Source: Dictyostelium discoideum (lineage: Eukaryota). Taken from it: a stretch of 64,000 nt of DNA. Shown piece after piece: positions 1,874-60,843 of this stretch (position 1 is the stretch's first letter; the number at the start of each line of letters is the position of its first letter). The position numbers were made by a program, and so were the translations under genes. The DNA lies in contig CM000155.2 of assembly GCA_000004695.1 (NCBI GenBank), positions 544,001 through 608,000 on the forward strand, in the 5' to 3' direction. The notes under the pieces were generated by a model that was not told the DNA's origin, made no database searches, and saw only the letters and a program-made list of their open reading frames with translations.

Positions 1874-4800
1874 TTATTTTTTATTTTTATCCATAGAATT
1901 TTTAACAAGTTGAATAAATGAATTGATCGTACTATTTTGGATTTTTTGAATTGTTAATTCATTTGGAATTGAAAATTCTTTATCTACCCAATTCTTTAAT
2001 TGAATGATAACTAAAGAATCAATCCCATAATCAACTAAAATGATATCTTTATTAAGTTTTAAAATATCAGTTGATAATATCTCTGAAATTTTAAATGTTA
2101 TTAATTGGTCAACAGTTAATTCAACATTGTCATCTTTTAATAATGATTTTGATTTTTCATTTTCTTCATTTATATTAATTTGGTAATCAAATTTAGATAT
2201 TAATGATTTTTGAGGTAATCCATTCAACGAGGTGAAATTGAAATTTGATAAAATTAAATTTGATGATTGTGCTTGATTTTGTAATTGTAAATCCAATGTA
2301 CCTAAAATTAAATTTGCTGATATTGGTATAAACCCTTCACCACTTAATAATGCTGCAACACTTTCATTTCTTGAAACGAAACCTGTGGATTCAATTAAAC
2401 CATAATTTGTACAAATTGTTGGTAAACCAATTGAAATTCTATATTTTGATAATGCATCTAAAACATTATTAGATGAGATGTAACCGCATTGATTTGCTGT
2501 ACTTGTTTTACTTGAAACACTTGATGACATTATAAAATTTTTTAATTTCCAATTTCTTTTAATTGATTGATTATGTAAATTAATTGCACCCATTGATTTT
2601 GCACTATGAGATTGTGTTAAATGATGTAAATCAACTTCATCAGAATTACAAGTGGCTTGAGTGTATGCGAAATGGAATATTGAATCGATATTATTAATAT
2701 CTGGATTTTCAATTAATAATTTATTAATTGATTCATCAATTAATCCAGAATCACTAATATCGACACTCTTGAAATGAAATTTAATATTATTGAAAAAATT
2801 ACCAAGCTTATTAATTAATTTTACCTTGTTTATTAAATACTCCATTTCCCATTTAATTGATGATTTTGATAAAATGATTATATTGCCAATTGAATTATTT
2901 TCAGAATTTCTTAATATCCATTTTAAAATTTCTAAAACTATACCTGATTGACCTGTTAATAATATGTTTCTACCTAATAATGATGGTTCAAGTTTATAAT
3001 TTTGTTTAAAAATTGATTGATCAAATTTATTAATTGATTTTTGTTTTTCAATTAATTCATTTATAATTGAATCTTGATTTTCATGATTTATAATGATTTT
3101 ACCCATATGAACTCTTTCATTTATAAATTCAATTGATTCTTTAACTTTTTCAATTGAATAATGTGTAATTGGAATTAATTGTAAATCATTCGATGAAACT
3201 GCATTTGAAATTATTGATAAAGTTGATTTTATAATTTTCTTATCAACATATTGTAATTCAATATTATGATAACCATAATTATATTTAAATTTCTTATTAT
3301 CAGTAAATTCATTTGAATTTAAATGAGTAATTGATAAATCAACAATTCTACCACTCATATTTAAACATTTGAAATTTGAATCCATATAATCACTTGATGA
3401 TAATGTATTCAATATAAAGTCAACACCACTTTTACCAAATGGATTTAATTTACTAATTTTTGATTTAATTTGTTTAACGAAATTTTTATTTCTTGTTGAA
3501 TATATACCTGAAATCATATCACCATAATTTTCTCTTAAATACTCTTCTTTTTCATTTGAACCAACAGTTACAAAAATTAAACCAGAATGGCCTTTCCATT
3601 TTAATATTTCTAAAGTTGATAAACCAACACCACCAGTTGCAGAATGAATTAATATTGTTTCATTATTTTTTAATGCACCAATATTATAAAGTGAATGATA
3701 TGAAGTTAAATAAACAACTGGAATTGATGATGCTTCTGAATGAGATATGTTTGATGGTTTATGACTTATTACATCGATATCTGTAATAATATGAGATGAT
3801 GTTGTACTTTTACCAATACCGTAAACGTGATCACCAACTTTAAATTCTTTACTACCTGTACTAATTCTTGTAATAATACCAGAAAACTCTATACCGAAAA
3901 TTGGTTCAACACTCTCTACTAAACCTGCATATATTAAATAATCTTTATAATTTAAACCTGTTGACATTACTTTAATTTCAACTTCATTTTCTTTTAATAT
4001 TGATGTTGGTTTTACTTTTACTTTATATTCTAAATTTGGTGTTAATGATATCATAAAGTTATCAACTTGTTCTAATGATTCAAATGAACTTGAGTTCTTG
4101 AAAATTGATTTTAATTTTGTTTCATTTTTAATTCTTTCATAATAAACCTTATGATTATTAATTATAAACTCTCTTTGTATATTAATTGATGAATTAATTA
4201 ATGGTTCAATTGTTTTAAATAAATTTTGATTTTCAATAATTGATGGGGTATCGAAATTTAATATAAACAACTCTAAAGGACATTCATGATAATATCTTGC
4301 AGCACCAATTAATGAAGAACTTAAATAATTGGTTGTTGTCGAATCATTTGTAATTAAAACATGCTTACATTTACAATTCAATTCCATTAATTTTTGATTG
4401 ATTTGAGTATATTCATGTGTAATGTTTACGAAATTATCAACAGATAATTCATCAATTGATTTAATGAAGTAAATAATTGATTCATTTGAAATATATTTTC
4501 CAATTTTATTTAACTCTTCAATTGTTGATATAAATTGTAAATTACCATTATCAATTGATTTTATAAAATGATTTGATAAATTTGAAGCATATTTATTACC
4601 AAAAACAATAATACTATCATAATTTGTGGTTTCAGATTTTGAAAATGAAAGATTTGAAATTGATGGTTTTTGAGCTTGAATTACAAAACATGTTAATTCT
4701 GGTGTCATTCTAATATCATCATTAAAATTTACTGATTTTAATAACTTATACCAAGTTTTTTGTTTCATACAACATCTATCTTTTCTAATTTCAGTATCTT

Positions 4801-7800
4801 GGAAAGACCACCATTGATCAAAAACACCAAAAATACCATCACCTATAATTGATTTATAAATTGGTTCGATGAATAATAAATGACCATTTGGTACTAATAA
4901 TTGATAAATTTGTTCAACACCATATTTAACATCTTTAATGACATGTAATACATTAAACATAATTATATAATCAAAGTATTGTGGTTTTAATCCTTGTTTT
5001 TCACCAATCAATGGTTGTTCTAAATTTAATGCTTTATAAATAATATTAAATCTATCATTAAACTTTTCAAATTTAGCTTTTGCTTCGGTAATAAAAGATG
5101 GTGATATATCTGACCATGTATATTCAATATCAATTTGATAATTTGGATATTGAATTAATAATGAATTGATTTTTTCAAGTACTAATAACGATAATGATCC
5201 AACACCACCTCCAAATTCTAATATTCTAAATACTAATTTTTCATTTAATATTGGTTTGATGGATTCTTGAATGATTTCACCCACCAATTCATTTTGAGCA
5301 GAAAAACCACTTGAATAGAATTTATCTAATAACCCACCTTCGAATAATGATTGTGGTGAATCTTCATCATTATCATTTTCTAATGGGAATAATAACTTTG
5401 AAATTATCTTTGTTGACTTTGAGAATATCTTAAAATTATGAGGACTTAAAACATTTTCAAAATCATAATCTTCATTATGGTACCATTGTTTTATTGATTC
5501 AAATGCAAATGTAAATAATCTTGAAAGCCATTTATTATCATTATCTTCTTTAATTTTATAATATTTTAATAATAATTGTTCAATTTCACTTGATTGAATT
5601 TCATCAATTGTAATTTCTGGACATCTTTTATTGATATTTGAAAATAATAATTTTGGAATAAATGATTCATAGATATTAATTTGATCAACATATTCATTAG
5701 GTATTTTTCTTTTGAAAATATGATCAAATGATGATAGTGATGGAATTAATGAATCTTTTGATTGTAAATTACATGAATAAATTTCATTTGTTGGATATTC
5801 CATTGCCAATGGATCTTTAATTTTTGTAGTTGATTTAAATGATGCATTTTCCATTTCAAATAAAACAGTACCATTTTCTAACATTACAATAATTGATGCA
5901 GAATATGAATCACCAATTCTTGGTTTTAATTTTGAATAAACATATATTTTAGAATGTTGACTTGTTGTCTTTGGAACCTTTGATGAATAGTATGTTAATT
6001 CTTCAAGTTTTTCAAATACCAATTGACAATTCTCATCAATTAAACCAATTGAACCATGTAAACAACAATCAATAATTGATGAATCAAAAAAGGTTGATCT
6101 ATTTTCATTAACACCTTGAATAATTGATATTTCAGATAATGAACAATTGTAACCTAAATAACATTTATCAACTCTTTGGAAATCACCAGAATAATTTAAA
6201 CCACATTTTGTTTTAATATGAGAATATAATTCTTGTTTTGATAATTTTGTAAGGTTACATTGATTTGAAATTAAATCATTTATATTATACATAAATAAGG
6301 ATTGTTCGTCATCTTCGTTTAAATTAGGACCTCTTGAAAATAATTGGAAATTTGCAGTTGATGTTTGTACCCAATCGCTTGATGATTTTTCATCTTTAAA
6401 ATGGAATAATGCTTTATATTCTTTTTTACCAGTTGAGTGAATGTTGGTTTGTAAACATTGACTGATTCCATCCATAAAAATTAATGGAGTTTTAAATTCA
6501 ATAAAACTAATCAATATATCTGGTAACTCTTTATTTGGGTTTGTATCAGTTTTTGATTCACCAAATATTTTTAAAATGTTGTCAATGTAACCACAACCTG
6601 GGAAATAATACTTTCCTTTAATTTGATGTCCTTTTAACCATTGGAATGGTTTCTTTTGAATATTAATATGAGTTTGATATGATTTAATTGGTGTATGATT
6701 TGAATTTGAAATACCAAGATGATTGATTGATGGACCATTTGAAAGATGATATTGGTGAAGATTATCAAGTTTCCAATATTCCTGATCTTCCCATTGATAT
6801 AATGGCAAATTTACCCTAGTTTGATTATTGGTATTATTATGATCAGATAATTGAATATTAAATCCGATACCATTATAACCTAAACAATATAATTCTGAAA
6901 TTAATTTTTGAATTTCAAATAAATCATTTGATTTCTTTTTTGAAAGTGGTGAAAAGATTGAAACTGATTGTTTTTTATCCTCTGGTACCATTTGTTTTAA
7001 ATAAAATGATAAAGTTGGATGTGGTGCAATTTCAATAAATATAACTTCATTACTATTATTATTAACTGAATAATTTAATTCAATATGTTTATAAATATTT
7101 GAAATTGTATTTGTAAATCTTACAGGATTAATGATATTATCATAAACATATTTGGTATCAAATGGATTCATTTCATCATATAAATTTGTTGTAACTGTTG
7201 AGAAAATTGGAATAGTTGGTTGTTTTGATTTGAATGAAATTTTTAAAATTTCATCTTTTACTGATAATTGACTTGAGGTATGGAATGAAGTTGGAGAACC
7301 TAATATTGCACAAAATACACCATCTTTTTTTAATTCTTTAATAATTTCATTCAAGATTAATTCTTTACCAGCAATAACAATTGATGATGGTGAATTGTAA
7401 CATGCAATTTCTAATTCTGGATATCTTGAAGAGTATTTTGAATTATATTCATTCTCGCCAATTGAAATTGATAACATTCTACCGAGACCATTTGTTTTTG
7501 ATTGTACCATTGATCTGTGATAAATTAAATAACAAAAAGTATCTAAATCAATCATACCAGAACAATATGATGATGAAATTTCACCTAAACTATGACCGAC
7601 GATAATTGATGGTTTAATACCCCAATGACAGTATAATTCAAATAATGAAATTTGTACCATACAAGTTGATGGTTGTGCAATTATTGAATATTGAATACCT
7701 TTTAAATCATTTTCATTAAATGATCTTAATTTTTCTAAAATTGAAAATCCATAATATTCATTTAATTTTGAATCAATTTTGTCCATTGATTTTTTGAAAA

Positions 7801-9580
7801 TTGGTTCATTATCATATAAATTCTTTGCCATTGTTGAATATTGAGCTCCTTGACCACAGAATACAAATACCATTGTTACATTCTTTTTATTTGATGATAC
7901 TAACATATTTGATGTTAATTTATCATTTGATGTATTGATAGTATTTGATTTTAAATTAAACTCATCCCAATTACTTGCAATTACAACTGAACGTTGAATT
8001 AATTTTTTAGATTTTGATTTTATTTGATTTTCTGCAAATTCTTTAAATTCAACATTATTATCAATTCTTGATTTATATAAATCTAATGATTTAATTGAAT
8101 TTGTTGAAAATGGGATTAAATATTGTTTTGGTGATTTTGATTTATTATTAATATTATTTCTAATTTGATTTCCTTTGAAACTTGATACAATTAAACAACA
8201 ATTTGAACCAGTGACACCGAAATTATTAATTGCAATTGAAACTCGTTTATTTATATAATTTAAAGTTGAAAAATCAATTGGGTCTGTTACAACCTTTAAA
8301 TTCCATTGATCAAATTTAATAAGTGGATTTGGTTTATTAAAATTTAAATTTGGAACAAAACATTGATTTTTTAAAATTAAACAACATTTAATTAATGATG
8401 ATATACCGGATGCAGATTCAGTGTGACCGATATTTGGTTTAAATGAACCAATTAATAATGGATTATCAGATGACCGATTTTCACTGGTTTTCAAAGCTAT
8501 TGAAACACTTTCCAATTCAATTGGATCACCAGTTGGTGTACCAGTGCCATGAGCTTCAAAATAAACGATATCATTTTCATTGACCTGTCCATTTGTTGAC
8601 TCCAGTGCCAAACGAATACATTCAACTTGTGATGATTTTGAAGGTGAATAAAAATTTGATTTATCTGAAAATCCATTACCATCGACATTTGATGCTGAAC
8701 CATCAATTACACAATAAATATTGTTATCATCTTTGATTGCATCATTTAAATTCTTCAAAATTGCAATACCTGCTGCATCAGATCTAACATAACCATCTGC
8801 ACCAGCATCAAACGATTTACACTTCCCATCTTTACTTAAAATATTTAAACGTGAATATGATTTTGATATATTTGGATCTATTAAAAAAAAAAAAAAAATA
8901 TTAATATTTTTAACTAATTTTTAATATTAAAATTATATATTATATATTTATATACCTAATAAAATATTAATACCACCAACAACAGAAATATTACTTGAAC
9001 CATCAATAATTGATTTATAACCTCTTCTGATTGCATTTGATGATGATGAGCATGCAGTATCAATTGTCATTGACTCACCATGTAAATCAAAACAATAAGA
9101 TACACGATTTGATATTGAATGTGTTGATGAAGAGAATATTTCTTGTTGAACTTTATTATCGTTTTTATTTAAATTTTGATAATCAGCACCACTACAACCA
9201 ATGAAAACTGAAGTATTGGAACCACGAATTTCAATTGGATCAATTCCAGAATCTTCCAATGCTTCCCAAGTACACTTTAATAATAATCTTTGTTGTGGGC
9301 ACATGTGAATACCTTCAGATGGATTAATTCCAAAAAATAATGGATCAAATGATTTCAATTCTTCAAATGGTATAAATCCAGCATAATTTGTTGAAATATC
9401 ACCTGATTTAAAAAAACTTTCATTCCATCTATCATTTTTAACAATTCCATCATACCTATTCAATAATTTACTCCATAGTTCATTTGGTGTTATATCACCT
9501 TTTAAATTTGGAAATCTAAAACCTATTCCGATAATTGCAACTTTATTACAATTTTCATCCACTAGATTTTTAGAATCCAT
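1874..9580 (-). CDS. Type I iterative highly reducing polyketide synthase. Structure is complement(join(1874..8877,8956..9580)), about 2542 aa, with a 78-nt phase-1 intron at 8878..8955 (GTATAT...AATAG).
   Basis: The ORF track gives a 2294-aa ORF plus a 210-aa upstream ORF. These join by a canonical GT...AG intron that restores the KS motif (...KCKSFDAGADGYVRSD...). Visible motifs are the AT GHSLGE, the DH HxxxGxxxxP (GHQIKGKYYFPG), the C-methyltransferase LEFGGGVGSLS, the ER HSATGGVGLST, the KR LLTGQSGIVLE and the ACP GIDSL. There is no C-terminal chalcone-synthase or TE domain. Confidence 0.9.
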
Positions 9581-12338
9581 TTTTCAATTATTTAAAATTT
9601 AAAAAAAAAAATTGATAAAAATTAGATAATTTATCCAAATTTTAAAAATAGATAAAAATAGGTAATTTTTTTTTTTTTTTTTAAATTTTAAATAATTAAT
9701 TAAAATTTTTAATTTTTAATTTTTTGGACATTTTTATTATTTTATTAATTAAATTAAAAGAAAAAAGGTTACATTACACTTTTTCTTGTGGTTAAAATTA
9801 TTAAGATCGAAATTAAAAAAAATTATTTGTTTTTTTTTTTTTTAAACTGTTAAAAAAAATAATTTAAATGTAGGTTTGGAAGGTTAGCCCATTTTTATTA
9901 CTTGCAACTAAAATTAAAATAAATATATTCAAAATAATAAAAAATAAATTCAAAATAAAAAAGTAAAAAAACAATTTGTTTTTTTTTTTTTTTTTTATTT
10001 TTTTTTTTTTTTTTGAGATCCAAACAAGATTTATTAAAAATTAAAAAAAAAAAAAAAAAAAAAAAATTATTAATAATTACCCCATCCAAAATAATAAAAT
10101 TTCAGCATATTAAATTATACCATTATAATTACATAAGTTTTTTTTTTTTTTTTTTTTTTAAATATATAAAAAATAGCCAGGCGATTAATTTTCTTTTTTT
10201 AATATTATTCGTAAATTTTTAAGTTATAATTTGAAAAAGTTATAATTTTAATAACAATAATATAAATGCAAATTTTATACATATATGGTTATTTTTTTTT
10301 TAATTTTAACGTGTGTACATTTATGTGTGGGTGTTTTTTTTATCTTCAAAGAATATAATAAAATTTACATAAAAAAAATAATTTTAAAATAAAACAAAAA
10401 TTGTAATGGTGAAGTTGATTTAGTTTATGATACTACTGGTATTTTGTTTAAATTATTTATTAAATTATTAAAATGGAATATTTTTTTTTGTTTGTGGTAA
10501 TTATTTTTATTGTTGGTTGTGGGTTACAATTTCCATTTTTTTTTTTTTATTTTTATTTTTTTTTTATTTTTATTTTTTTTTTTTCTGATTTAAATTCCAT
10601 TAATTTATAAAAATGAATTCAATACCAACACTGTTCTTATAATAGGTTTTTCTATTTTTTTTGGTATTTTTTTTTCTTCACTAACCACAATAACATTATT
10701 ATAATTTTTTAATAGAGGTAGCTTGATTTAATATTAGTACACACTACCACACACAATTTAATTCACTGACTTAATTATTTTAAATCTTTTACCAAATTTA
10801 TATAATATCTATAGTTTATTTAAAAGGTGTACCATTATTGGAAAAACAATTGTTTTTTTAATTATAATTATTATTATTATTATTATTATTATTTTTTTTT
10901 TTTTTTTTTTTTCATTTTATATTAACACCTCAAATAACAATAACAACAACACACATGTTCTAAATCTCTGAGTTTGGAATACAAATGCACATTCATATTA
11001 TTCCAAACATACACATAAATGTAACACCTCACAAGATAATTTAATTTGGTATTCAGAAAAAAAATTCACCTTCTATGTATAGTTTGGGGGTGCAATTATT
11101 GTAATATTATTAATAGAGTGAGTGGGAGAAAGGGTGTGTGAGTGTGTGTGAACGGGGTGAAAAAAACAATATTTTAGTTTTTCTAATTTTTTTTTTTTAT
11201 TTATTTCCATTTTTATATATGTTTTGTTTTATTTTTTTTTATTTTCTTTTTTTCATTTTTACTAATTACGGTTAATGTGCACAATATATTTGATAAATCA
11301 AAATAAAAATAAATAGGATACCAAATGTATGTTATTAGTACTATTTATCCACAATGATTTTTTTTATTTTTTTTTTGTTTTTTTTTTTTTTGCTAATTTT
11401 AAAATTAAAAAGAAAAACAAAAAACCAACAATAAAACAAAAATACCCTTTTTTTTGATCAAAACTACATCTAATATGTAAATTTTTTTAATATTATAAAT
11501 ATTAATATTATTATTTTTTTTTTAAAATAAAAAAATAAAATAAAAAAAAAAAAAAAAAAAAAAAAAGAAAAAAGCAACTTATTTAAATAACAAATTAATT
11601 TCTTATTTTCAATAACACACAATTGTCTTTTGAAAATTATAATAATTATATAATTATTAATAAAAAAATTAAATGGAAATTACATATATTTTATCTAAAT
11701 GTATGTTTTCTTTAAAATATTATTTGTGGATTAAAAAATAAAAAATAAAAAATAGTGATTGTATTTTTTTATATAAATTTAAAATAATTATTTTATATTC
11801 ATAAAAAAAAAAAAAAAAAAAAAAAAAATGGTATCAAATTATAATTATTTGAATTTTAAACTAATCAATTAAAAATAAAATATAAAAAATAAAATATAAA
11901 AAATAAAATTTTATTATTATTAGACTTTGGTTCAAGTAGATCAAATATCTATCAATCAAATAGCCAACAAAGTTTAACAATTCAAAATTCAAATGTTGCC
12001 TCTAAAAAATTAAATGTTTATGAATTTATACCTTATTATTAAAAAAAATAAAAAATAATCAAAAAAAAGAAATAAAAAAAATAAAAAAATAAAAAATAAT
12101 AATAATAATAATTAATAATAATAATAATCCATAAAAAAAAAAAAAAAAAAAAAAAAGAATAAAATTAGTGCCGATTCTAATAAACAAACTAAAATATATA
12201 TATTATATATTTAAAGTAATAAAATAAAAATAAAAAAAAAAAAAAAAACAAACAAACTTTTTATTATTTTATATTTTTTTATTTTTTTATTTTTTTTATT
12301 TTTTTTATTTTTTTTATTTTTTTATTTATTTTATTATT

Positions 12339-13948: not shown

Positions 13949-14876
13949 CGGTCGTTTTTTTTTTTTTTTTTTTTTTCATTAACGAAAAAAAAAAAAAATA
14001 AAATAAAATAAAATAAAAAAAAAAAAATTATTTTAAAAATCTCATTTTTTAACAAAATAAAGAAATAATAAGCAATATATTATTCAAATAATAAAAAATA
14101 ATAATAATAATAAAAATTAAATCTCTCATTTTTATTATTTCTTTTATTGTAACAAAATAAATTTTTTTATTTTTTTTTTTTTTATTATTTTTTTTTTTAT
14201 TATTTTTTTATTTTTTTTTTTTATTATTATTTAATTCCGATTTTAGTCATTCGCCGATCATCATGTTTAAAATTATTTTTTTTTATTTTTAAACTCAAAA
14301 ATATGGAACTATTTCCATAATAAACATCCCTAAAAAAAATTAAAAAAAAAAAAAAATAAAAAAAAAAATTAAATGAAATTTTAAATAAAAAAAAAATAAA
14401 AATAAAAAAATAAAAAATAAAAATAAATTAAAATTTCATTTAAATTTTTTTGAAATTAAATATAGATATCAACAGAAATTTTAAATAATTTTTTACAAAA
14501 ATGGATATCCACAGCCAACAGATTTTATTTTAATTTTTTTTTTTTTTTTAATATAAATAAATTTTTTTTTCTTTTTTCTTTTTTTTTACTTTTTATAATA
14601 AAAAAGAATTAAAATAATATTAAAAAAATAAAAAAAAAAAAACATATAATTTTTTTTTAATAAAAAAAAAAAAATAAAAGAATAAATTTATTTAACATTA
14701 AAAATTCTAATAATAATAATAAATAATAATAATAATAATAAATAATAATATATCAAAAGATAATTTTTTTTTAAAAAAAAAAATAAATATAAAAAGATCA
14801 TAAAAAAAAAAAAAATTGTTTTTTTTATTTTTAATACATAAAACTGGATTATAGAAATAGTAGAAAAAAAGCAAAA

Positions 14877-14898
14877 ATGGTAAAAGTAAGTATTTTAA

Positions 14899-14929
<31 letters not shown>

Positions 14930-16367
14930 TTCTTTAAAATTAATTACTAATATATATTTTTTTTTTTTTTTTTTTTTTTAATATAAATTTTAAAAGGAAA
15001 AAGAATATTATGAAAGATTAGGTGTTAAACCAGATTGTACAGAAGATGAATTAAAGAAAGCATATAGAAAGATGGCTGTTAAATACCATCCAGATAAAAA
15101 TCAAGGACCAGGTAAAGATGCAGCCGAAGCAAAATTTAAAGATATTAGTGAAGCATATGAAGTTTTAAGTGATCCAGAGAAGAGAAAGATGTACGATAGT
15201 TATGGTTCTGAAGGTATGAAGGAGAGTGGTTTCCATGCATCATCAGCTGAAGACCTCTTCTCACATTTCTTTGGTGCAGGAGGTGGCGGTGGTGGATTTA
15301 GTTTCGGAGGTGGTGGTGGTGATGATTTTGGTGGATTTAGTTTTGGTAATATGGGAGGTATGGGCGGCATGGGTGGCATGGGTGGTGGTCACAAGAAGAG
15401 AAGAAAGGGTGAAGATATTGAACATGAAATGAATAGAAGTTTGGAAGAATTATATAATGGAAAATTAGTTAAGATTTCAATTAGTAGAGATGAAGTATGT
15501 AAAACCTGTAAAGGTAGTGGTAGTAATAAACCTGGTGTAACCACAACTTGTCCAACATGTAATGGTAGTAGATACGTTTTCCAAAAGAAACAAGTGGGTC
15601 CAGGTATGATACAACAAGTTCAAACAGCATGTCACACATGTCATGGTACTGGTGAAAAGATAAAAGAAGAGGATAAATGTAAAGAATGCAAAGGTAAAAG
15701 AGTTATACAAGGTAAGAAGATCGTACAATTCCAAGTCGAGAAAGGTACTAGAGATGGCGAAAGAATCATGTTACAAGGTCAAGGTTCCGAGTATCCAGGT
15801 GTACCACCAGGTGATGTAATCATTACAATTCGTGAGAAACCAAATGTAAATTTCAAGAGAAATGGTGATAATTTAATCTACACCAAACGTTTAAAATTAT
15901 TAGACTCAATCGCTGGTAGTCAATTCATTATAAACACATTGGATCAACGTAAACTTTGGGTCAATCATGAGAAAGGTGATATAATTAAGCAAGGTGATAT
16001 GCGTTACATAGAGAATGAAGGTATGCCAATTAAAGGTACCTCTAGAAAAGGTAAATTAATCATTGCTTTTGATATTGAATATCCATCGAATCTTACAAAT
16101 GATGATATTGAAAAACTCTCTAAAATCTTACCAAAAGCTGCCACCCCTTCTGTTTCAAAATCTGATTGTAAATCGGTTGGTCTCTCAAAGGTAAACTTTA
16201 ATACCAACGAACAAAGTTCTCATGGTGGTGCTGGTGGTGCTTATCAACAACATGGTGGTGCTTATGGTCATCAAAAACAACAACAACAAGGTTTTAATCC
16301 TGCTGATTTTGGTGCTCAATTTGGTGGTGGTGGTCCACAACAAGCACAACAGTGTCAACAACAATAA
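14877..16367 (+). CDS. Type A (class I) DnaJ/Hsp40 chaperone. Structure is join(14877..14885,14997..16367), about 459 aa, with a 3-codon first exon (ATG GTA AAA) and a 111-nt intron.
   Basis: The spliced N-terminus is [38 protein letters not shown], a J domain with HPD. It is followed by a G/F-rich region ([14 protein letters not shown]), four CxxCxGxG zinc-finger repeats and a C-terminal CaaX box (CQQQ) predicting farnesylation. Confidence 0.85.
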
Positions 16368-42136: not shown

Positions 42137-42210
42137 GTTCGGATGGTGTAGTCGGTTATCACGAATCCTTAACACGGATTAGGTCGTGGGTTCGATTCCC
42201 GCTCTGAATA
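42137..42210 (+). tRNA. tRNA-Val (anticodon AAC).
   Basis: The cloverleaf was folded by hand. The acceptor is GTTCGGA/TCTGAAT (two G-U pairs) and the D-arm is GTGT/TCAC with an AGTCGGTTA loop. The anticodon stem AATCC/GGATT carries the loop TTAACAC. The variable loop is AGGTC and the T-arm is GTGGG-TTCGATT-CCCGC, with discriminator A. It is near-identical in layout to metazoan tRNA-Val-AAC. Confidence 0.9.
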
Positions 42211-42244
42211 CAACTAGCTTTTTTGGGTGATTTCACATATCACA

Positions 42245-46301: not shown

Positions 46302-48187
<1,886 letters not shown>

Positions 48188-51396: not shown

Positions 51397-51861
51397 TGTA
51401 CTATTAAAAAAAAAAAAAAAAAATAAAATTTAGATCTGTAAATTTTTCTTTTATTTTTTATTTATTATTAGCTAAAATTAAACAATGAACAATAAATTTT
51501 TATTTTTTTATCTTTTTAATTATGTTTCAAACTAATTCAAAGGATAAATAATCAATGTAATGTAAATTAAAAAAAAAAAAAAAAAACCCTCTGCTTAATT
51601 TTTTTTTATTAAACACCCAAAAACAAAATTTGAAATATAATTGTAATGGTGGTATTTTTTTATTTACTTGTAACACACTTTTTCCTTTGTGTTTGTGTTT
51701 TTTTTTTTTTTTTTTTTTTAACTCTAACTACTTTGGCACACTACACACAGTATGAATACTGTTTTCACACAACATAATTTTAATAAGAGATAAAAAACTG
51801 TTTTTTTTTTATTAAAAATTATTATTAATATTATTATTAATTATATTTTTTATTTTTAATA

Positions 51862-51892
<31 letters not shown>

Positions 51893-51949
51893 CCTATAAA
51901 TAAAATTTTTTTAAATTGATTTAATAATAACTTAAAATAATAAAAAATA

Positions 51950-54900
51950 ATGGAAAATCAAAGAATTTATAATATTAATTTAGATTTACTAAAAGATAAT
52001 ACATTAAATGGGAAAAATAATTATTATCCATCAACTTATTTAATTGAAGAATTAATAAAGATATTTCAAAATACTGATTTAATAATACCAATCTTTGAAT
52101 TTAAACCACCATTTATAATAGATAATGAATTGGAAAAATTTTATTTGCAAACAGAAATCATTGAAATTAATTCAAAAGAATATGAAATAAAATTCAATTT
52201 TAAAGATAATAAAACAAACCAATGGAATCAATTTTCAAAAGGAAATTTCTTACTATCAACTAATAATAATTATAATTTTAATGAAAAAGAAGTAGATTAT
52301 ATTGAAAATTTGAAATCTAAAATTTGTAATTTTACAAAAGTTTCAAAAGATGAATTTATAAATTTTATAGATGAAAAAACTGGATTAAAATATAATGGAA
52401 TTTTTAATAACAATATTAAAGATTGTTTAATTGGTGATAATTGTTCTTTACTAGTTGTATCATTGGAAGGATGTCAAAACCAAAATTTATTTTTTAATAA
52501 ACCTTTATTTAATATATTTTTAAGTGGTATGTTAATATTGGTTGATAGAAAATGTAAATTGAATTTTAATAAAATTGAAGGACTTAAATATTATTCACCA
52601 AACAATCTACCAAAAGATAAGGATCAATTAATTTCAGAAATTTATATTTATTCAAAATTAATTTCATCAAAAACAATTTCCTCAAATTCATATTCAGCAT
52701 CTGTAAAAGTTTTATTACCAGATGGAACTTTATTATTTGATATTGATAGAGTTGAATATAAATCATTAACATCTATTAAACCAATATCAATTGAACCACC
52801 AAATGATCATATGTATTCAGTTTATCAACAACCATTGAATTCATTAATTAAATCACCATTAAAATTTAAATCAAAATATCAAAATAAAATCAATGATTTA
52901 AATCATTTTCTAAATTACCAAGATGGTTCAACATCAAATTACAATGATTTCATTACAATTCAAAATCAAATTATTTCAAATATTGTAAAAGAAGTAATAA
53001 AACCAATTTTAAATGAAAAAATATTATTTAGAATATTAGATTTTCAAGGAGAAATAAATTCAACAACAATTATTTTAGAAAAGATAAATTCATTATTTGG
53101 AAAATTTCCAAATTTCCAAATTGATATTGAATATACAATAAACAATAAAAATCCACCAAAAAACAGTATACCAATTAAATTTGATAAAATTTTTAAAGAA
53201 AATAATTTAAATAATATATGTATAGTTATAAAAGATTTTAATTTAGTTAAAGATCAATTTAAAAATGGAGAAAATAACATTGAATCATATTATGATTTTA
53301 TAATAATATCAAATTTAAATTTAAATGAAAATAATTTAAAATCATTACTATTACAAATAAATCAATTATTAACTCCAAATGGTCATTTATTATTAATGGA
53401 ATTTAAATCAAAAATTTCATTTAACAAAAATAATTTAGAAAAATTATTAATTGAATGTAATTATTGTAATGATTTTGTAATTTTTTTAGATGATTCAACA
53501 CCATTATTGTTAATTCATACACAAAAACAAAATATACAATTATTTAAAAATATTTCAATCTCTAATGATTCAGAACAAATATTAAATAATTTATTATTTG
53601 AAAATATAATAATATTTGGTAATAATAATAATATTGACTTTAAATTGATTTATAAAAATAATGAAAATTATAAATCAATTTATCAAATTTCAAAAATTAA
53701 TGAAATAAATGAAAAATTAATAACCGATAAATCAATAATTTATTTTATAAAAACAATTGATAAACTTTTAATTGAAAATTTTAATGAAATAACTTTTGAA
53801 TATATTCAAATTAATCAAATGATAATGAAATTAAATAGTAAATGTAAACATGTTTTATTAGCAAAAGATATAAAAGGTGAAAATTATTTATCATCATCAG
53901 TAATAGGTGTTTCAAGATACTTTGATCAAATTCCTCAATTAGAATTATTTACAATAGATTTTGACAATAATTCAATTGATTCAATTTATAATGTTATTAA
54001 CGAATTAATTAATTCTAAAATTAATTGGTGGCAAAAAGAATTTACAATTAAAAATAATGAAATTTATTTTGAAATATTTAAAAAGGAATCAAAATTTATA
54101 AATAATATATTTAAATCAAATTCATATGAAAAAAATCATAATGAAATGATTACAAAAAAAAATTATAAAATTGTAGAAAAATATTTAGGTAATTCAATTT
54201 TAATTACAGGTCAATCAGGTTTTGTTTTAGAGATTTATAAATGGATAATTAATTATTCTGAAAGTGTTAAAAATATTATTATACTTTCAAAATCAAAATT
54301 AAAATGGGAATTAGAATTATTAATTAAAAAAAATAAACATATTAATTTCATTTTTAAAAGTATTGACGTTGGTAATACAAATGCAATGGAAGAAACAATA
54401 AATATAATTTTAAAAGAAAATTCAAATATAATTAATATTGATTCAATATTTCATTTCGCCGTTGAATATTGTACAACACCAGATCCTTTAGAAATTACAA
54501 TTAAAAATTTGGAGATTTCAAATTGTGCTAAAACAATGGGTGCAATTAATTTACATAATCAATCAGTTAAAAGAAATTGGAAATTAATTAATTTCATAAT
54601 GGCATCATCGGTTGCATCTTTATTTGGTGTAAATAGTCAATGTAGTTATTCAAGTTCATGTTATGTAATAGATTCATTGTCAGCATATAGAAAATCAATT
54701 GGATTACCATCGATTTGTACAAATTATGGTGTTTTAGGTGAAGCAGGACTATGTTCAAGAGTTCAAATGATACAAGATTTTACATTAAAATTGGGTTATG
54801 AACCATTACCTGCCAATATGGTATTAGGTGCATTAGATTTACAAATTCAAAACCAAAATATAGTCCCACTAGATTTTATACTCTCTAAACTTAATTTTAA

Positions 54901-54979
54901 CTTATTTAAAAACAGTAATCAAAGATTACTTAAAAAATTTGATTTTTTATTTAATTCAGTAAATATAAAAAAAGAATAA
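51950..54979 (+). CDS. Truncated PKS-like gene of 1009 aa. It is homologous to the DH-cMT-(ER deleted)-KR segment of type I PKS and lacks KS, AT, ER and ACP. It is probably a relic or pseudogene, but the ORF is still uninterrupted.
   Basis: It aligns to PKS 1874..9580 over its length. EVIKPILNEKILFRILDFQGE aligns to ESIKPILNEKLVFRILEFGGG, with the SAM glycine motif lost. SIIYFIKTIDKL...YIQINQMIMKLNSKCKHVL is conserved. The KR motif ILITGQSGFVLEIYKWI and ...SSVASLFGVNSQCSYSSSCYV are present. The DH catalytic His context (GHQIKGKYYFPG) is replaced by LNGKNNYYPS. The ER block is absent and the protein ends before the ACP. Confidence 0.7.
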   Translation: MENQRIYNINLDLLKDNTLNGKNNYYPSTYLIEELIKIFQNTDLIIPIFEFKPPFIIDNELEKFYLQTEIIEINSKEYEIKFNFKDNKTNQWNQFSKGNFLLSTNNNYNFNEKEVDYIENLKSKICNFTKVSKDEFINFIDEKTGLKYNGIFNNNIKDCLIGDNCSLLVVSLEGCQNQNLFFNKPLFNIFLSGMLILVDRKCKLNFNKIEGLKYYSPNNLPKDKDQLISEIYIYSKLISSKTISSNSYSASVKVLLPDGTLLFDIDRVEYKSLTSIKPISIEPPNDHMYSVYQQPLNSLIKSPLKFKSKYQNKINDLNHFLNYQDGSTSNYNDFITIQNQIISNIVKEVIKPILNEKILFRILDFQGEINSTTIILEKINSLFGKFPNFQIDIEYTINNKNPPKNSIPIKFDKIFKENNLNNICIVIKDFNLVKDQFKNGENNIESYYDFIIISNLNLNENNLKSLLLQINQLLTPNGHLLLMEFKSKISFNKNNLEKLLIECNYCNDFVIFLDDSTPLLLIHTQKQNIQLFKNISISNDSEQILNNLLFENIIIFGNNNNIDFKLIYKNNENYKSIYQISKINEINEKLITDKSIIYFIKTIDKLLIENFNEITFEYIQINQMIMKLNSKCKHVLLAKDIKGENYLSSSVIGVSRYFDQIPQLELFTIDFDNNSIDSIYNVINELINSKINWWQKEFTIKNNEIYFEIFKKESKFINNIFKSNSYEKNHNEMITKKNYKIVEKYLGNSILITGQSGFVLEIYKWIINYSESVKNIIILSKSKLKWELELLIKKNKHINFIFKSIDVGNTNAMEETINIILKENSNIINIDSIFHFAVEYCTTPDPLEITIKNLEISNCAKTMGAINLHNQSVKRNWKLINFIMASSVASLFGVNSQCSYSSSCYVIDSLSAYRKSIGLPSICTNYGVLGEAGLCSRVQMIQDFTLKLGYEPLPANMVLGALDLQIQNQNIVPLDFILSKLNFNLFKNSNQRLLKKFDFLFNSVNIKKE

Positions 54980-55416: not shown

Positions 55417-58400
55417 TTCACTTTTTTTTTTTTTTTTTTTTTTTGATATAAATAAACTATTGTAGTATACAATTAGTATGTTATTTTTATTTATTTATTT
55501 TAGGTCGTTTAGTTTTTGTGAATTTAAAATGGTACGTTATTTTAGATTAGGTAATTAATAATTAATTGGTGGTGTAATTGTTGGAATTGATTCATTTGTG
55601 TTTATGCTCCATTCTTTTTTAAATTTTTTGATGGTTTCGGACCATTGGGTTTCTTTTTGTGAGGTTGTTTTTAATTGAGTATTGGTTAAAGTTTGATAAT
55701 GTTCTTGAATATTCCAATCTTATTAACTTGTGCCATTTTGATTTTAATATATCATAATCTAGTGTTGTGTTGTTTATTTGGTTGTCCCAATTGTCAATTG
55801 ATTGAGTTATATAGATGTCAAATAATGATTTGCATAACCATATCCATATTTGGTGAATAACTAATGAGATTATGTTCCAATATGCATGTGTTCTGACTAG
55901 ATCAAGATTTGTGTATATATAATTCCAGTTGAACCTGTATTTTTTATATTGTGCGTTTTCTGCAAAATGAAAATTAATATTGATAGTTGGATCTGGTTTA
56001 AATGCTTTGTTGTTTGTGGTTTATAATGAGTGTGTATAATTTTGTTGTTTGGTTTTTTGTTAGTGACCAGTTTTTGTTTCCATTGCAATTTTTATATATA
56101 AAATATTTTAATTTGTCGTGGTTTATGAAGTTGATTGTGTGCTGACAATTGAAAAACAAATGACCATAGGGATCATTATTCATTTCATTGTTGCAAATGG
56201 GGCAAACTTTGTTGTGTAGATGATTAATCGGAAGACATCTAGCATGGAATCTTTGCATTGTATCACGCCCTTTTGGATCTTTTAATTTTTGAATTTTGAC
56301 AAATAGTTGGTCGTATGTGTATTTCCATAATAGTTGTATTGATTGTTGGTGCGAAGTAAGAAGTAGATCTGAATATTTCTTGCCAATATAGTCTTTTGAT
56401 TTACATTGGTGATTGTTGAGTATTGTCGAGTAGATTTCTTTGAGTGTTGGTGGTAGTGGAATATTATTTGTGTTTAATGTTTGAGAGGTTTGATTTTTTA
56501 TTAATATTGGTTGTAGGATTTGAACTTTATCTTTTAGATGTCCAATTTGAGTTGCATAGTTTTCCCATTCTCTTTTGATTTTTATAAGGTATGGAGAAGA
56601 GATTGATTTGTTGATGATTTGATCCATCCAACTTATCATGTATATTGAATTATTTGCCGATTTATGCATTTGTAAAAATCTGTTGTATATCCAAATCTTT
56701 TGAGCAACTTGTCGTAATTGTATATTCCACATACCCCAACCACCTTCTTTTAATGGTTTTAATGATCTATCATAACACATCAAAGGTATTTTTGCACGTG
56801 AATGGATGGTTGATGTGTTATTTTCAATGGAATTGGCATTGAGAGTTGGTGATTCAGAATTTGTGGGAGAATTCATAAACCATGAGATTAATTTATTAAT
56901 TTGAATTTCTTCATCTTTTGTAAATTCTTCAAGGTATGATAAATATGTTATTGGTGATAGTGAGTAGGTGTTTATGATGGTTGTTTTTGTTTTTAATGTT
57001 GTGCCACTAGTTTTCCATAGTACTAATGATTTATTCAATGTTTTCATTGTTTCTGGTAATTTCCATATGTAAACCATTATGATTAAAGAAATAGCTAAGG
57101 ACTCTTTCTGATTGATCTTTTTTGGTTATTGGTATTCTTTTTGATTGTGGAGTATTGTTTATTATGTGTTTATCAGTGATTTTGTGGGGGTTGATTTCTA
57201 TTATTGCACTTTTGTCAAAATTTAATGATGATGATGTTGAAGCGCAGAAATTATCGAAATGTTTGATTGATTGTTGTTGTTGTTCGTAGTTGATGTTGTA
57301 TGTTGTAGAGTCGTCTGCAAATTGGGTAAATTTGATTTTAATTTGTGGATTGGGTGAAATTGGTAAACCAATTATTGAATTGTCTGCATTTATTGTTCTT
57401 GCTAATATTTCAATTACAATTACAAATAAAGTGGCTTGTTTTACACCTTGTTTTACACCTCTTTTAATATCGAATTTTCTGGTTGTTTTACCATTAATTG
57501 AAATTTTTGCTTGTGAGTCAGATAATAGCTTGTGGATTAAATTTATTAATTTTATTGGTATACCAATATGAATTAATGTTCTTTTAATACTATCGTGAGA
57601 GATAGAATCAAATGCTTTAAAGAAGTCAAATAGTGTGATGATACCAGGGAGGTTTTTAGATTTGAGGTAGTTGATTAAATCATTGATGTTGATGATGTTG
57701 TCTATGATGAATCTGTGGGGTACGAAACCAGTTTGGTTGTTGTTGATGATGAAAGGAAGTATTCTCAGAAGACGTGCATTGATTACTTTTGAGAGGATCT
57801 TGTAATCAGTGTTTAGAAGTGTAATGGGACGACGATTTGATATGAGTAACGGGTTGCCTTTCTTGTATATTGTGTGTATAAGACCTTCGGTGAATTCTGT
57901 TGTGATGTGGTGAGGATTTTCTAGTATATCGTTGAATAATGTAGTGAGAATTGGTTTAACTTGGTTTAAATGATTAATGTAGAATGCATTTGTAACGCCA
58001 TCTGGACCGGGTGATTTGTTGGGGTTACAGGTTTTAATTGCAGCTTCAACTTCATCTTGTATAAATGGTGAGTCTAAACCATTCCAATATTCATTTTTTA
58101 TGATGGGCCATGTGTTTAGCATGAGCTGGTGAGTAATTGGACAACATATTTGTAAGCTATATAGATTTGTGTAGAATTCAACAAACGCATTTTCAATTTG
58201 GTCGGGGTCGGATGTAATGATGTTACCATATTGGATTGATTCAATTTTTGCATCTTTTGATCTTTTGTTTAGTATTGCTGATAGATACTTGCTAGGTATT
58301 TCTCCATTTATATGTTTTTTTAATATGTTTGTGTGGTTTTGATGTAGTTTGTTTTTGTTACATATAATATTGTATTCAGCGATGCATTGTTCTTCAAGAT

Positions 58401-60700
58401 GTTTGAATTTTGCTGCTTTTTCTAATAGTATTTGTTTTGCACGTTGAGTTTGTTTGTCTTTGTTATATTGATAGTTTTTTAGAGTTTTTATAATTTTTGA
58501 TTTTACTTTTGACCAGTTTGTAAATTGATTGATTGATGTGTTATTGTGATTAGTTATTAAATGATTGATAATATTGATTGCTTCATGGTCATTTGCAGTA
58601 CCAGGTGATAATATCCATCTTTTCTTATGTTTATTTATTTGAAAAGGTGAAGAAATTGTTGTTGATATTGGATTATGATCTGATAATGAAGATGGAATTT
58701 GGTGGACTTGTGTATATATATTTTCAGGGTCTATTCTATTGTATTGAGTATATATTCTATCTAATCTGTTGCCATGTGTATGAGTTGGAGTGTTTTTAAA
58801 TTCACCTTGATCAATTAGATGGTGTTGGTATGTGTAGGATTGGATAATATCATCTAATAGTGAATTGTCGTTGTGGATACAGTTGAAATCTCCTGCGATA
58901 ATAGATACATGTTGGGATTGGTTTGGTATTGGGTTTGTTGAGTGGTTGTGGAGAAGTGTTTGTAGTGAAGTTGCATATGAATTCTTTTTGATGGTATTAT
59001 TTGATGCTGGTGCGTAAATTCCAAGAATACCAATTGGTAATTGATTTGGAAATATAACGTCTGCTAAAATAGCTCTACCATCAATTGTTGATATGTGTTT
59101 GAGTTTGAGTGTGTTTGGGTTATGGTTAATGATGATTACACCATTTCCTCGTTTGGTGACAGAGATGATGTGATCGGGAAAATCATGTTTAAGTTGTAAT
59201 GGTGATGAATTGAGTTCAGTGAGTATTGAGATTGTTGGACGAGGTGGAAGTTTTGATATAAGTAGTTGTAGTGTGTCAACAGCTTTTTGGTAGGAATTGT
59301 GTTGATTGTTTGGGTTTTCAGTGAATCCTCTACAATTCCATGTTATAAAGTTGATTTTTGAGCTCATACCTTACTAGGTTTGGCAGCACCAGTATTGACT
59401 GGTTGTGTAGTCAGGGCATTGCTGCTTCTTCTTGTATTTATTGTATTTGGAGTTGGTGCACTTGGTTTGTTTGGTTGAGATTGTAGAGGTTTTTGTGGTA
59501 CAATTGTTGGATCGGTTGGATTGCTCATTGATAATGAGTTTTTCCCGTTATTATTATTTGAAGAATCACTTTTGTGTGAAATTTCATTATTGTTTTGGGA
59601 TTGATTGTTAATATCAAGTGATTCATTTAGTATAGCTTTTGAACCACTATTTTGAAGTGAGTTATTATTGCGATTGGAATTTGCAATTTCGTTGATTGGT
59701 GGGGTGTTAATGTTGTTTTTTGGTGGTTGATTGTTTTTGTTCATGTTTGGGTTTGTGATGGCATTTTTTATAGTTGTTGCCATATCTGCATTTTTTGCAT
59801 GTTGAATTTTGTGTTTAGTGACACTACGTGTTGCAGCTTTGATATATCTTGTGATACCAGATGGTTGTTCGATCTTTTGATCAACAATGTTGTGTGTGTG
59901 ATCAATTAGATGATATGTTATAATGTAGCTTTTAAACGCAACAGCATATGAGTATGTGACAGTAAATGATTCAATTGATGTACAACTGGTGAATTTAGTG
60001 AGGTTGTTTGTAATTGCATCGTTTGCATGTTTGGGTGAGTACGTTTTAATGAATGTTTTAATGATTGCATAATCATTTGATGATATATCGAATCTATAGT
60101 TGAGTTTGTCGATATTTAGTGCAAGTTGGTTTTGAAGGTTGATTATTGAAGTTAATTTATCAACGTTGCAATTTACGAAGGCAGTTGCACCAATTATTTT
60201 GAATGCTGATGGCGACAGTATATCTTCGAAGAGTTTGTGAATGTTTTTGTGAATTTGTTGAATTCTTGTGTCATCTTTTGAGGTTAATTCTTCACGGATG
60301 TGTGGTTGATTAAAGTAACACTTAATGTTGATGGTGTTATTGTTTTTTTCTAAGAAAGAGAGTGGTCTTGTGATTGATGGAGGTGCAATGATATCTAATT
60401 GATTATCAAGTCCTTTGTTTAGTGAGAGTTGGTTTGTTGGGGTTTGTTTTTTAGGTGTGTCGATTTTTGCACTTTTATTTTTTGTTGTTGAGGTTGTGGA
60501 GGTATTATTTGTATTGGTCGTGTTGTTATCTGTATGATTTAACTGTAATTCAGTTGAGTGATCATCAGCCATTGTTGAAAAGTATATAGGACGATAGCCC
60601 TTGCTTTAATGAGCAAAAAAAGGGTAAAATTAAGAGGAATGAATGTGGCGGTGAAGATATAACAGTGATTTATTTATTATATGTATAAATTCTCGTTTAT
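55417..60700 (-). mobile_element. tRNA-gene-targeted non-LTR retrotransposon (TRE-type), about 5.3 kb. ORF1 is 59364..60572 (402 aa). ORF2 is 57031..59367 (APE endonuclease plus RT, 778 aa), continuing frameshifted into 55998..57077 (zinc-finger/C-terminal region). The 3' poly(A) is at 55417..55443. The 5' end lies between the ORF1 ATG (60572) and the tRNA-Leu 3' end (60764).
   Basis: The ORF2 N-terminus is MSSKINFITWNCRGF... (AP-endonuclease). RT motifs are present, including ...FADDSTTYN.... The C-terminal region has a Cys/His motif HARCLPINHLHNKVCPICNNEMNNDPYGHLFFNCQHT. ORF1 and ORF2 overlap by ATGA. A 27-nt T run on the plus strand gives the 3' poly(A). Internal frameshifts are inferred by comparison with the second copy at 62201+. 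Confidence 0.8.
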
Positions 60701-60763
60701 TTCTTTGTTTTTTCGGTTTTTTTTTCGTTTTTTTCGTAAAAAATATATTTCCCAAAAACAATG

Positions 60764-60843
60764 TGGAAGATGAGGGACTCGAACCCACGACCCCGGAGGA
60801 TAGAGCCTAAATCTATTGTCTTAACCATCTCGACCAATCTTCC
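60764..60843 (-). tRNA. tRNA-Leu (anticodon UAG), class II with a long variable arm.
   Basis: The minus-strand fold has a perfect acceptor GGAAGAT/ATCTTCC plus discriminator A. The D-stem is 3 bp (GTC/GAC) with a GG loop. The anticodon stem ATAGA/TCTAT carries the loop TTTAGGC. The variable arm is 11 nt, and the T-arm GTGGG-TTCGAGT-CCCTC has one T-T mismatch. Confidence 0.75.

Follow-up and report, generated by a model that had tools for sequence, protein, structure and literature searches.

Can the middle of a polyketide synthase (PKS) persist as a gene of its own? The question is raised by an open reading frame (ORF) at positions 51950..54979 (+) of a 64,000-nucleotide stretch of the Dictyostelium discoideum genome (GCA_000004695.1, contig CM000155.2, positions 544,001 to 608,000 of the forward strand), referred to below as the window. 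This ORF is the whole gene DDB_G0291604 (XP_635328.1 / EAL61786.1 / Q54EB2), a single exon of 1009 codons plus stop. A preliminary description made from the letters of the window had left two alternatives, a very recent pseudogene or a standalone ketoreductase (KR) or scaffold derived from a PKS. The architecture, selection, orthology and transcription of the gene all fit the second alternative. Judging from sequence comparison, DDB_G0291604 is probably a functional protein-coding gene, derived from a PKS and restricted to one lineage, in which the KR has a catalytic role.

Architecture of DDB_G0291604

The translation of the ORF is an exact match to the annotated D. discoideum AX4 protein XP_635328.1, and the pairing of DDB_G0291604 with Q54EB2 in Table S1 of PMC11367525 confirms the gene identifier. 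The ORF begins with ATG, and an in-frame stop lies three codons upstream. With its composition of 81.6% AT, a run of 1009 codons without a stop has a probability of about 1e-49; the longest open stretch is 69 codons in the other five frames of the interval and 90 in shuffled copies. These values substantiate the earlier statement that such a frame is very unlikely to occur by chance.

The only Pfam domain recognized in the protein is KR (PF08659), with 64.2 bits against a cut-off of 22.6 over residues 750-929; the one other match, to a methyltransferase (MT) family, is sub-threshold. Among solved structures, the best match is D. discoideum Pks16 (PDB 9nju; E = 1e-85), which aligns in three blocks. 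Residues 13-342 correspond to Pks16 964-1277 (dehydratase, DH), residues 321-740 to Pks16 1406-1857 (MT plus structural KR), and residues 716-996 to Pks16 2193-2486 (KR), while the enoylreductase (ER), Pks16 ~1857-2193, is skipped. Nothing in the protein matches a ketosynthase (KS), an acyltransferase (AT) or an acyl carrier protein (ACP) in Pfam or in the Pks16 alignment. The view that the ORF is only the DH-MT-KR middle of a PKS, devoid of KS, AT, ER and ACP, is upheld by both comparisons.

The product is a free-standing protein of 1009 amino acids with the order pseudo-DH, pseudo-MT, structural KR and catalytic KR. The pseudo-DH (residues 1-300; 51950..52849, +), which aligns to Pks16 964-1277, keeps the double-hotdog fold and has lost the catalytic residues. 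It is followed by a linker plus pseudo-MT (residues 301-560; 52850..53629, +), with the sub-threshold match to Methyltransf_23 and no MT lid. The structural KR subdomain, or pseudo-KR (residues 561-740; 53630..54169, +), matches Pks16 ~1690-1857, after which the alignment resumes at 2193. The ER was deleted near 54125-54169 (+), between …SNSYEK and NHNEMITK…, where the alignment gap is ER-sized and has clean borders. The catalytic KR (residues 741-1009; 54170..54976, +; Pfam KR E = 1.9e-17) aligns to Pks16 2193-2486. In alignments with paralogues, the N-terminus coincides with the first strand of DH, and the ORF ends (…FDFLFNSVNIKKE, followed by the stop) ~15-25 residues short of the position where the ACP of the paralogues begins.

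Two alignments were used, one of 12 sequences and one of 40 sequences, the latter including four orthologues plus 36 full-length or fragmentary PKS relatives. An AlphaFold model built from the 40-sequence alignment has a mean predicted confidence (pLDDT) of 82.4 and a predicted template-modelling score (pTM) of 0.83, with the highest confidence in the KR half. The pseudo-DH is predicted as a strand-rich fold (pLDDT mostly 65-94), and the structural KR subdomain reaches pLDDT 85-97. Foldseek ranks Pks16 first among PDB entries, with a template-modelling score (TM) of 0.80 over the query; next come the modifying regions of PsoA, LovB and human FASN.

A piece of this kind could be the product of mis-annotation, with upstream KS-AT or downstream ACP exons spliced to the ORF so that the whole encodes a normal PKS. 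A short 5' exon is frequent in Dictyostelium PKS genes, as in a PKS elsewhere in the window whose first KS exon occupies 8948-9580 and the rest 1874-8758. A tblastn search of window positions 10001-64000 with this full-length PKS as query (E <= 10) detected no KS, AT, ER or ACP fragments. Only the ORF was matched, so there are no hidden exons in this interval, and the truncation, for which cryptic upstream KS/AT exons had been the proposed check, stands. KS, AT and ACP exons were likewise not found by tblastn at the orthologous loci, with the exception of an eroded relic in D. dimigraforme, which duplicates DH and KR parts and supplies no KS-AT. The stop before the ATG and a retrotransposon downstream also argue against additional exons, and so does DDB_G0291602, a conserved gene in its own right that lies on the same strand ~600 bp upstream; the independent gene models of six other assemblies, which begin at the same Met as in AX4, point the same way. 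A normal PKS hidden by annotation is barely credible, and no other explanation considered here is less so.

Orthologues and Selection on the Open Frame

Intact single-exon orthologues of 1012-1127 amino acids have been identified in D. discoideum ACTFIW and ACTFIR, in cf. discoideum ACTFIY and ACTFIZ, in D. citrinum and in D. dimigraforme. They occupy the syntenic site, adjoining the DDB_G0291602 orthologue on its downstream side. Together with AX4 they form the set of seven orthologues compared here, from three or more species; the AX4-like assembly ACTFIT contains a copy identical to that of AX4. Synonymous divergence (dS) among the pairs ranges from 0.02 to 0.61 and equals that of the neighbouring gene, and orthology is therefore confirmed.

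The ratio of nonsynonymous to synonymous divergence (dN/dS), calculated pairwise by the Nei-Gojobori method, is 0.36-0.56 in all 21 pairs. The selection is graded along the protein. In all pairs tested, the catalytic KR has values of 0.17-0.26 and the structural KR of 0.24-0.46, followed by the pseudo-DH with 0.38-0.62 and the pseudo-MT with 0.49-0.78, where some intervals reach 1. The full-length synthase PKS21 provides a reference for one pair, AX4 vs ACTFIY. For the catalytic KR of this pair, dN/dS is 0.19 in DDB_G0291604 and 0.14 in PKS21, and for the structural KR, 0.31 and 0.12, the PKS21 value including the ER. For the DH it is 0.57 against 0.08 and for the MT 0.75 against 0.22; the KS-AT part, absent from DDB_G0291604, has 0.11 in PKS21. 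Relative to PKS21, the DH-like part is thus relaxed ~7x and the MT-like part ~3x, and the KR is as constrained as in a full-length synthase. The KR is the selected core of DDB_G0291604, and purifying selection is graded along the protein.

These values bear directly on whether the ORF is a decaying relic, that is, a functionless PKS pseudogene left open by luck or newly disabled. DDB_G0291604 lacks every domain needed for polyketide building, and in some pairs the evolution of its pseudo-MT is close to neutral. These genomes also contain many PKS fragments and pseudogenes; five pks pseudogenes have been reported in D. discoideum (PMC9618038), and the eroded relic of D. dimigraforme lies beside the orthologue. 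Against decay, however, stand seven intact orthologues, among which ~77 distinct indel runs are found, all multiples of three. In neutral simulations with the observed substitution spectrum, 0/300 per pair kept the frame open, 16-43 new stop codons were expected, and the lowest dN/dS was 0.58-0.78, above the observed values. The constraint on the KR and the regulated transcription described below are also at odds with decay, and true decay, as seen in the D. dimigraforme relic, looks different, with frameshifts and large deletions. The very recent pseudogene of the preliminary description is refuted, and the combination given there as the mark of a dead relic, a dN/dS near 1 together with a lack of transcripts, is not what is found. 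A relic is very improbable.

Some peculiarities of the orthologues have affected their detection and annotation. The D. citrinum orthologue (L009 9621-13004) contains two in-frame poly-Asn runs of ~70 residues each, in the pseudo-DH and the pseudo-MT. It has no precomputed Pfam match on record and was missed by the word-indexed protein search. In that search, low-complexity words dominated the whole-protein query and a KR-only query missed itself; an exhaustive representative search was used instead. The deposited ACTFIR model (L006 7212-10664, 1049 amino acids) overruns the true stop at 10290-10292 through an invented intron, the true ORF having 1026 codons.

Catalytic and Cofactor Motifs

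The catalytic motifs of the DH are degenerate. In the His motif LLKDNTLNGKNNYYP (51986..52030, +), Asn17 (51998-52000) takes the position of the catalytic His and one extra residue is present, so that the paralogues read LKGHxVKGK-YYFPG and AX4 reads LKDNTLNGKNNYYPS. The lost His context noted in the preliminary description is real in AX4 and not universal. His is kept in three of the seven orthologues (D. citrinum, D. dimigraforme and cf. discoideum ACTFIZ), and Asn occurs in AX4, ACTFIW, ACTFIR and ACTFIY. In the Asp motif KPLFNIFLSG (52499..52528, +), Asn188 replaces Asp and Ser192 replaces His/Gln, where paralogues read ILDSCLHG. This change of Asp to Asn is common to all seven orthologues (LFNIFLSG or a close variant). 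The polymorphic His fits a DH that was already dead through the loss of Asp, and, judged by these residues, DH chemistry is dispensable in DDB_G0291604.

Motif I of the MT, LFRILDFQGEIN (53024-53059, +), has lost the ExGxG signature. It reads DFQGE in AX4 and DLDGN or DLEGG in other species, and the S-adenosylmethionine (SAM) loop is lost in all orthologues. The lid segments, as defined in PMC12828403, are absent. The loss of the SAM loop was correctly described before, with the refinement that it is not peculiar to this gene: the glycine loop and the lid are also lost in the full-length PKS21 and in one D. purpureum PKS, so neither loss is unusual by itself.

The state of the KR is different. 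The NADPH-binding Gly loop ILITGQSGFVLEIYKW (residues 750-765; 54197..54244, +), with the core TGQSGFVL at residues 753-760, varies little or not at all among the seven orthologues, and the 40 aligned dictyostelid sequences all share its residues G754, Q755 and G757. The active-site residues lie within 54530..54661 (+) and comprise Lys861 (54530-54532), Ser886/Ser887 (54605-54610), Tyr900 (54647-54649) and Cys904 (54659-54661). Lys861, Ser886/Ser887 and Tyr900 are invariant in the 40 aligned sequences and in every orthologue. Eleven alignment columns are invariant across the 40 relatives, all of them in the KR and all kept by DDB_G0291604. The canonical Rossmann motif and Tyr region attributed to this KR at first sight are thus present. 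By its motifs, the protein is a PKS-type KR in all sequence tests but that for YxxxN; by the same kind of evidence it is neither a PKS, since KS, AT and ACP are missing, nor an active DH or an active C-MT.

Expression during Development

Published RNA-seq data provide the transcript support that the preliminary description had asked for. In Table S1 of PMC11367525, the gene has 0.2-0.6 reads per million (rpm) at 0-4 h, near the floor of the table, and 0.9-1.6 rpm at 6 h. Levels rise to 3-9 rpm at 8 h and 11-16 rpm at 10 h, with a log fold change (logFC) of 7.9 at 10 h and an adjusted p of 1.2e-80. Supplement 5 of PMC6198379 lists, from the Parikh 2010 time course, values of 0, 0.24, 6.1, 4.1, 5.6, 3.7 and 2.9 over 0-24 h, corresponding to 3-6 from 8 to 24 h, as well as 4.5 in prespore and 1.7 in prestalk cells. 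For purified cell types, the same supplement gives 8.0 transcripts per million (TPM) in Cup, 0.05 in Spore, 0.6 in Stalk and 0 in Vegetative. According to these tables, DDB_G0291604 is transcribed; it is silent in growth, induced in development from ~6-10 h and enriched in cup cells. Most pks genes show a similar pattern, and pks5 has been reported to be cup-specific (PMC9618038).

Origin of the Gene

In an exhaustive profile-free search, the nearest non-orthologous relatives are 40-45% identical and are all full-length PKSs of 2100-3000 amino acids. They include D. firmibasis P0007 and P0011 and the PKS10 and PKS21 families. Neighbour-joining (NJ) trees place the truncated genes in one clade with 100% bootstrap and a long stem, among ER-containing PKSs, the deep nodes being weak. 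An ER-less PKS, P0015, is known from D. citrinum. Inheritance of the ER loss from an ER-less ancestor of this type was considered and rejected because the two are not sisters in the NJ trees, with the same weakness of the deep nodes; for this reason the two ER losses look independent.

An eroded PKS relic of D. dimigraforme (L001 8144-9380) lies between the DDB_G0291602 orthologue and the truncated gene. Its reading frame shifts from 2 to 1 to 3, and it has suffered large deletions. Part of the AT-DH linker and the beginning of the ER survive in it, both of them lacking from the truncated gene, and therefore a fuller PKS was once present at this locus. Compared with the neighbouring orthologue, its structural-KR piece is 83-90% identical and its DH piece only 40%. 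This mosaic identity suggests gene conversion between tandem copies. In the D. dimigraforme annotation the relic is split into two short gene models, 7841-8728 and 8803-9383. DDB_G0291604 would have arisen at the locus from a duplicated full-length iterative type I PKS by removal of the KS-AT head, the ER and the ACP tail, and the remainder would be the so-called modifying region, composed of pseudo-DH, pseudo-MT, structural KR and catalytic KR.

The truncated gene is absent, with no remnant, from the syntenic site of D. firmibasis and D. purpureum. In both species (L004 11213-11860 and L010 9287-9901, respectively) the slot is filled by a homologous Cys-rich gene of 205-216 amino acids with a signal-peptide-like start, of secreted type; no locus with the PKS-like gene contains it. 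A secondary loss in D. firmibasis had been proposed from dS distances and was withdrawn in view of this shared Cys-rich gene. Since it fills the slot in both species and is missing wherever the PKS-like gene sits, primitive absence is more parsimonious. The simplest reading of these gene arrangements is a single replacement of the Cys-rich gene by the PKS-derived gene, before D. discoideum, D. citrinum and D. dimigraforme diverged from their common ancestor. The dS distances, taken from one neighbouring gene, do not settle the branching order of the species. A full-length PKS is found in D. purpureum at L010 1-3764, two genes (~4 kb) upstream of the DDB_G0291602 orthologue; PKS genes were thus close to this neighbourhood before the truncated gene appeared.

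Possible Function

The selected activity of DDB_G0291604 is most likely that of its KR. From the preserved motifs and their constraint we infer a catalytic activity in which the TGQSG Rossmann loop would bind NADPH and the Lys861/Ser886/Tyr900 triad would reduce a beta-keto group, or a similar carbonyl, to a hydroxyl. The structural KR subdomain would prop the catalytic subdomain, its usual part in type I KRs, all of which have this arrangement. For the inactive DH and MT folds, the only role may be that of a loosely constrained structural body or of a docking surface. The protein has no carrier domain, and its substrate must therefore be supplied from outside; candidates are the acyl-ACP of another PKS or of a fatty acid synthase (FAS), used in trans, or a free ketone. 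The gene is turned on in multicellular development, from ~6-8 h, with enrichment in cup cells. A more specific proposal, that it is a trans-acting KR subunit or an ACP-docking modulator acting with one or more full-length PKSs in cup cells of late development, is possible and is put forward tentatively.

Several observations weigh against a catalytic role. The YxxxN motif is broken, as Cys904 occupies the position Tyr+4 in all orthologues where most KRs have Asn. The same Cys is found in the full-length paralogues P0008 and P0011, and may for this reason be tolerated. For an enzyme, the overall dN/dS of ~0.4 is high. Transcript levels are low and do not exceed ~16 rpm or 8 TPM, and the supplement text examined contains no protein-level evidence, Q54EB2 appearing, within the portions of the PMC11367525 supplement files covered, in the transcript table alone. 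The absence of the gene from D. firmibasis and D. purpureum means that it is not essential to the genus. Finally, the KR Lys/Ser/Tyr are kept in 36/36 PKS relatives of the 40-sequence alignment, so no KR-deficient synthase is visible that would need a KR in trans.

The Cys at Tyr+4 and the lack of an evident KR-deficient partner among these 36 relatives would both agree with a non-catalytic scaffold or regulator, a PKS-shaped body that binds full-length PKSs or ACPs; it could be a decoy, for instance, or an assembly factor. Conservation of the KR fold would then reflect binding, perhaps that of NADPH, instead of turnover. A scaffold would also account for the preservation of the entire 1009-codon frame instead of the KR alone, for dN/dS values below 1 in the dead DH and MT in deeper pairs, and for the retention of the Pks16 modifying-region geometry in the AlphaFold model. 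However, all catalytic and cofactor residues that are invariant in active KRs have been kept across dS ~0.5-0.6, the constraint on the KR equals that of the KR of an active synthase, and a Lys/Ser/Tyr triad is superfluous for a pure binding role. A scaffold without turnover is on the whole unlikely, somewhat more so than the trans-acting subunit proposed above.

Comparison with Known Systems

Dictyostelid PKSs have been published only as KS-to-ACP proteins of 2000-3500 amino acids (PMC12828403, PMC3188802), which agrees with the earlier remark that a standalone architecture had not been described for them. Published surveys list 40 self-contained D. discoideum PKSs plus five stop-interrupted pseudogenes and leave DDB_G0291604 unmentioned (PMC12828403, PMC9618038). 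The names Q54EB2, XP_635328, DDB_G0291604 and pks43 are not mentioned in the main texts of the literature searched, and two RNA-seq supplements list the gene. In databases it is called "beta-ketoacyl synthase family protein", a misnomer because it has no ketosynthase domain.

The modifying regions of Pks16 (9nju), PKS10 and PKS21 have the same order and fold as DDB_G0291604, with DH, MT or inactive MT, structural KR and KR. The identity to paralogues, the TM score on Pks16 and the KR motifs of the family (TGQSG, Lys, Ser, Tyr) mark it as a relative of these Dictyostelium PKSs. Unlike them, it is free-standing at 1009 amino acids and lacks KS, AT, ER and ACP, and its DH and MT are predicted to be dead. 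The ER-less P0015 of D. citrinum (2062 amino acids) aligns to it without interruption, residues 22-1004 of DDB_G0291604 matching P0015 966-1967. In contrast to DDB_G0291604, P0015 has kept KS, AT and ACP, and its DH and MT motifs look active.

Animal FAS offers another parallel. Its psi-ME/psi-KR/KR tri-domain (PDB 4piv) likewise unites an inactive MT fold, a structural KR half and a catalytic KR in one body, and structures of this tri-domain are strong fold matches to DDB_G0291604, supplemented by a sequence match. In FAS, however, the tri-domain is internal to a polypeptide running from KS to thioesterase (TE), and in isolation it is known only from work on an engineered construct, whereas DDB_G0291604 is a natural separate product with a dead DH.

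Tailoring reductases that act in trans are known from fungi, where LovC is a trans-acting ER. The bacterial trans-KR SiaM (PMC4046962) resembles DDB_G0291604 in being a discrete reductase without a carrier domain, and a substrate supplied by the ACP of another synthase is the working model for DDB_G0291604. SiaM is a single-domain, FabG/ActKR-like tetrameric short-chain dehydrogenase (PMC4046962). DDB_G0291604 differs from it as a megasynthase fragment with pseudo-DH, pseudo-MT and structural KR subdomain, whose nearest PKS is 42 kb away.

If DDB_G0291604 acts in trans, Amoebozoa would have their first iterative PKS system of a split or trans-complemented kind. The gene would then also be a natural case of a megasynthase modifying region freed as an independent protein, with a recent birth in the ancestor shared by D. 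discoideum, D. citrinum and D. dimigraforme. Accounts of the 40 Dictyostelium PKSs, most of them without known products, take each synthase as self-contained. A KR protein that stems from a PKS, is conserved and developmentally regulated and has no carrier domain would be an accessory player beside them, which could alter the reduction pattern and hence the structure of polyketides of the fruiting-body stage. The gene may further be viewed as a dated natural experiment in which a megasynthase fragment survives as a new gene, the selected domain remaining constrained while its dead neighbours drift and stay in frame. In practical terms, the database name is wrong, and for knockout and metabolomics work the gene offers one small target.

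Surrounding Features of the Window

The 5' intergenic region of DDB_G0291604 (51356..51949, +) is presumed to contain the promoter. T-runs at 51698-51719 and 51864-51892 and a TATAAA at 51895 can be read directly in the sequence. The syntenic anchor DDB_G0291602 (50807-51355, +) is small and highly conserved and has a signal-peptide-like start. Its dN/dS is 0.09-0.29, and its orthologues reach D. purpureum, where the UniRef name is carbohydrate-binding-domain protein.

On the 3' side, a non-LTR (long terminal repeat) retrotransposon begins ~1 kb from DDB_G0291604 and spans 55998-60572 (-). It contains an ORF with endonuclease plus reverse transcriptase and two further ORFs on its flanks. A tRNA-Leu(TAG) gene at 60763-60843 (-) adjoins it, as expected for a tRNA-targeted TRE element. 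The gene calls of the loci in other assemblies include no reverse transcriptase at the matching position; ACTFIY has LTR-retrotransposon genes there instead (L002 13562-19583).

The PKS of the window (1874-9580, -) is full-length, with the order KS-AT-DH-MT-ER-KR-ACP, and lies on the strand opposite to DDB_G0291604, to whose KR its own is 50% identical. It appears as two ORF pieces, 8948-9580 with the N-terminal KS part and 1874-8758 with the remainder, which are presumably joined across a short intron. A tRNA-Val(AAC) gene is present at 42137-42211 (+). The interval 47001-48000, inside an ORF at 46775-48187, shows a strong anomaly in strand composition, with a GC skew of -0.61 and an AT skew of +0.30, and the 1-kb stretch at 14001-15000 has a GC content of only 8.5%.

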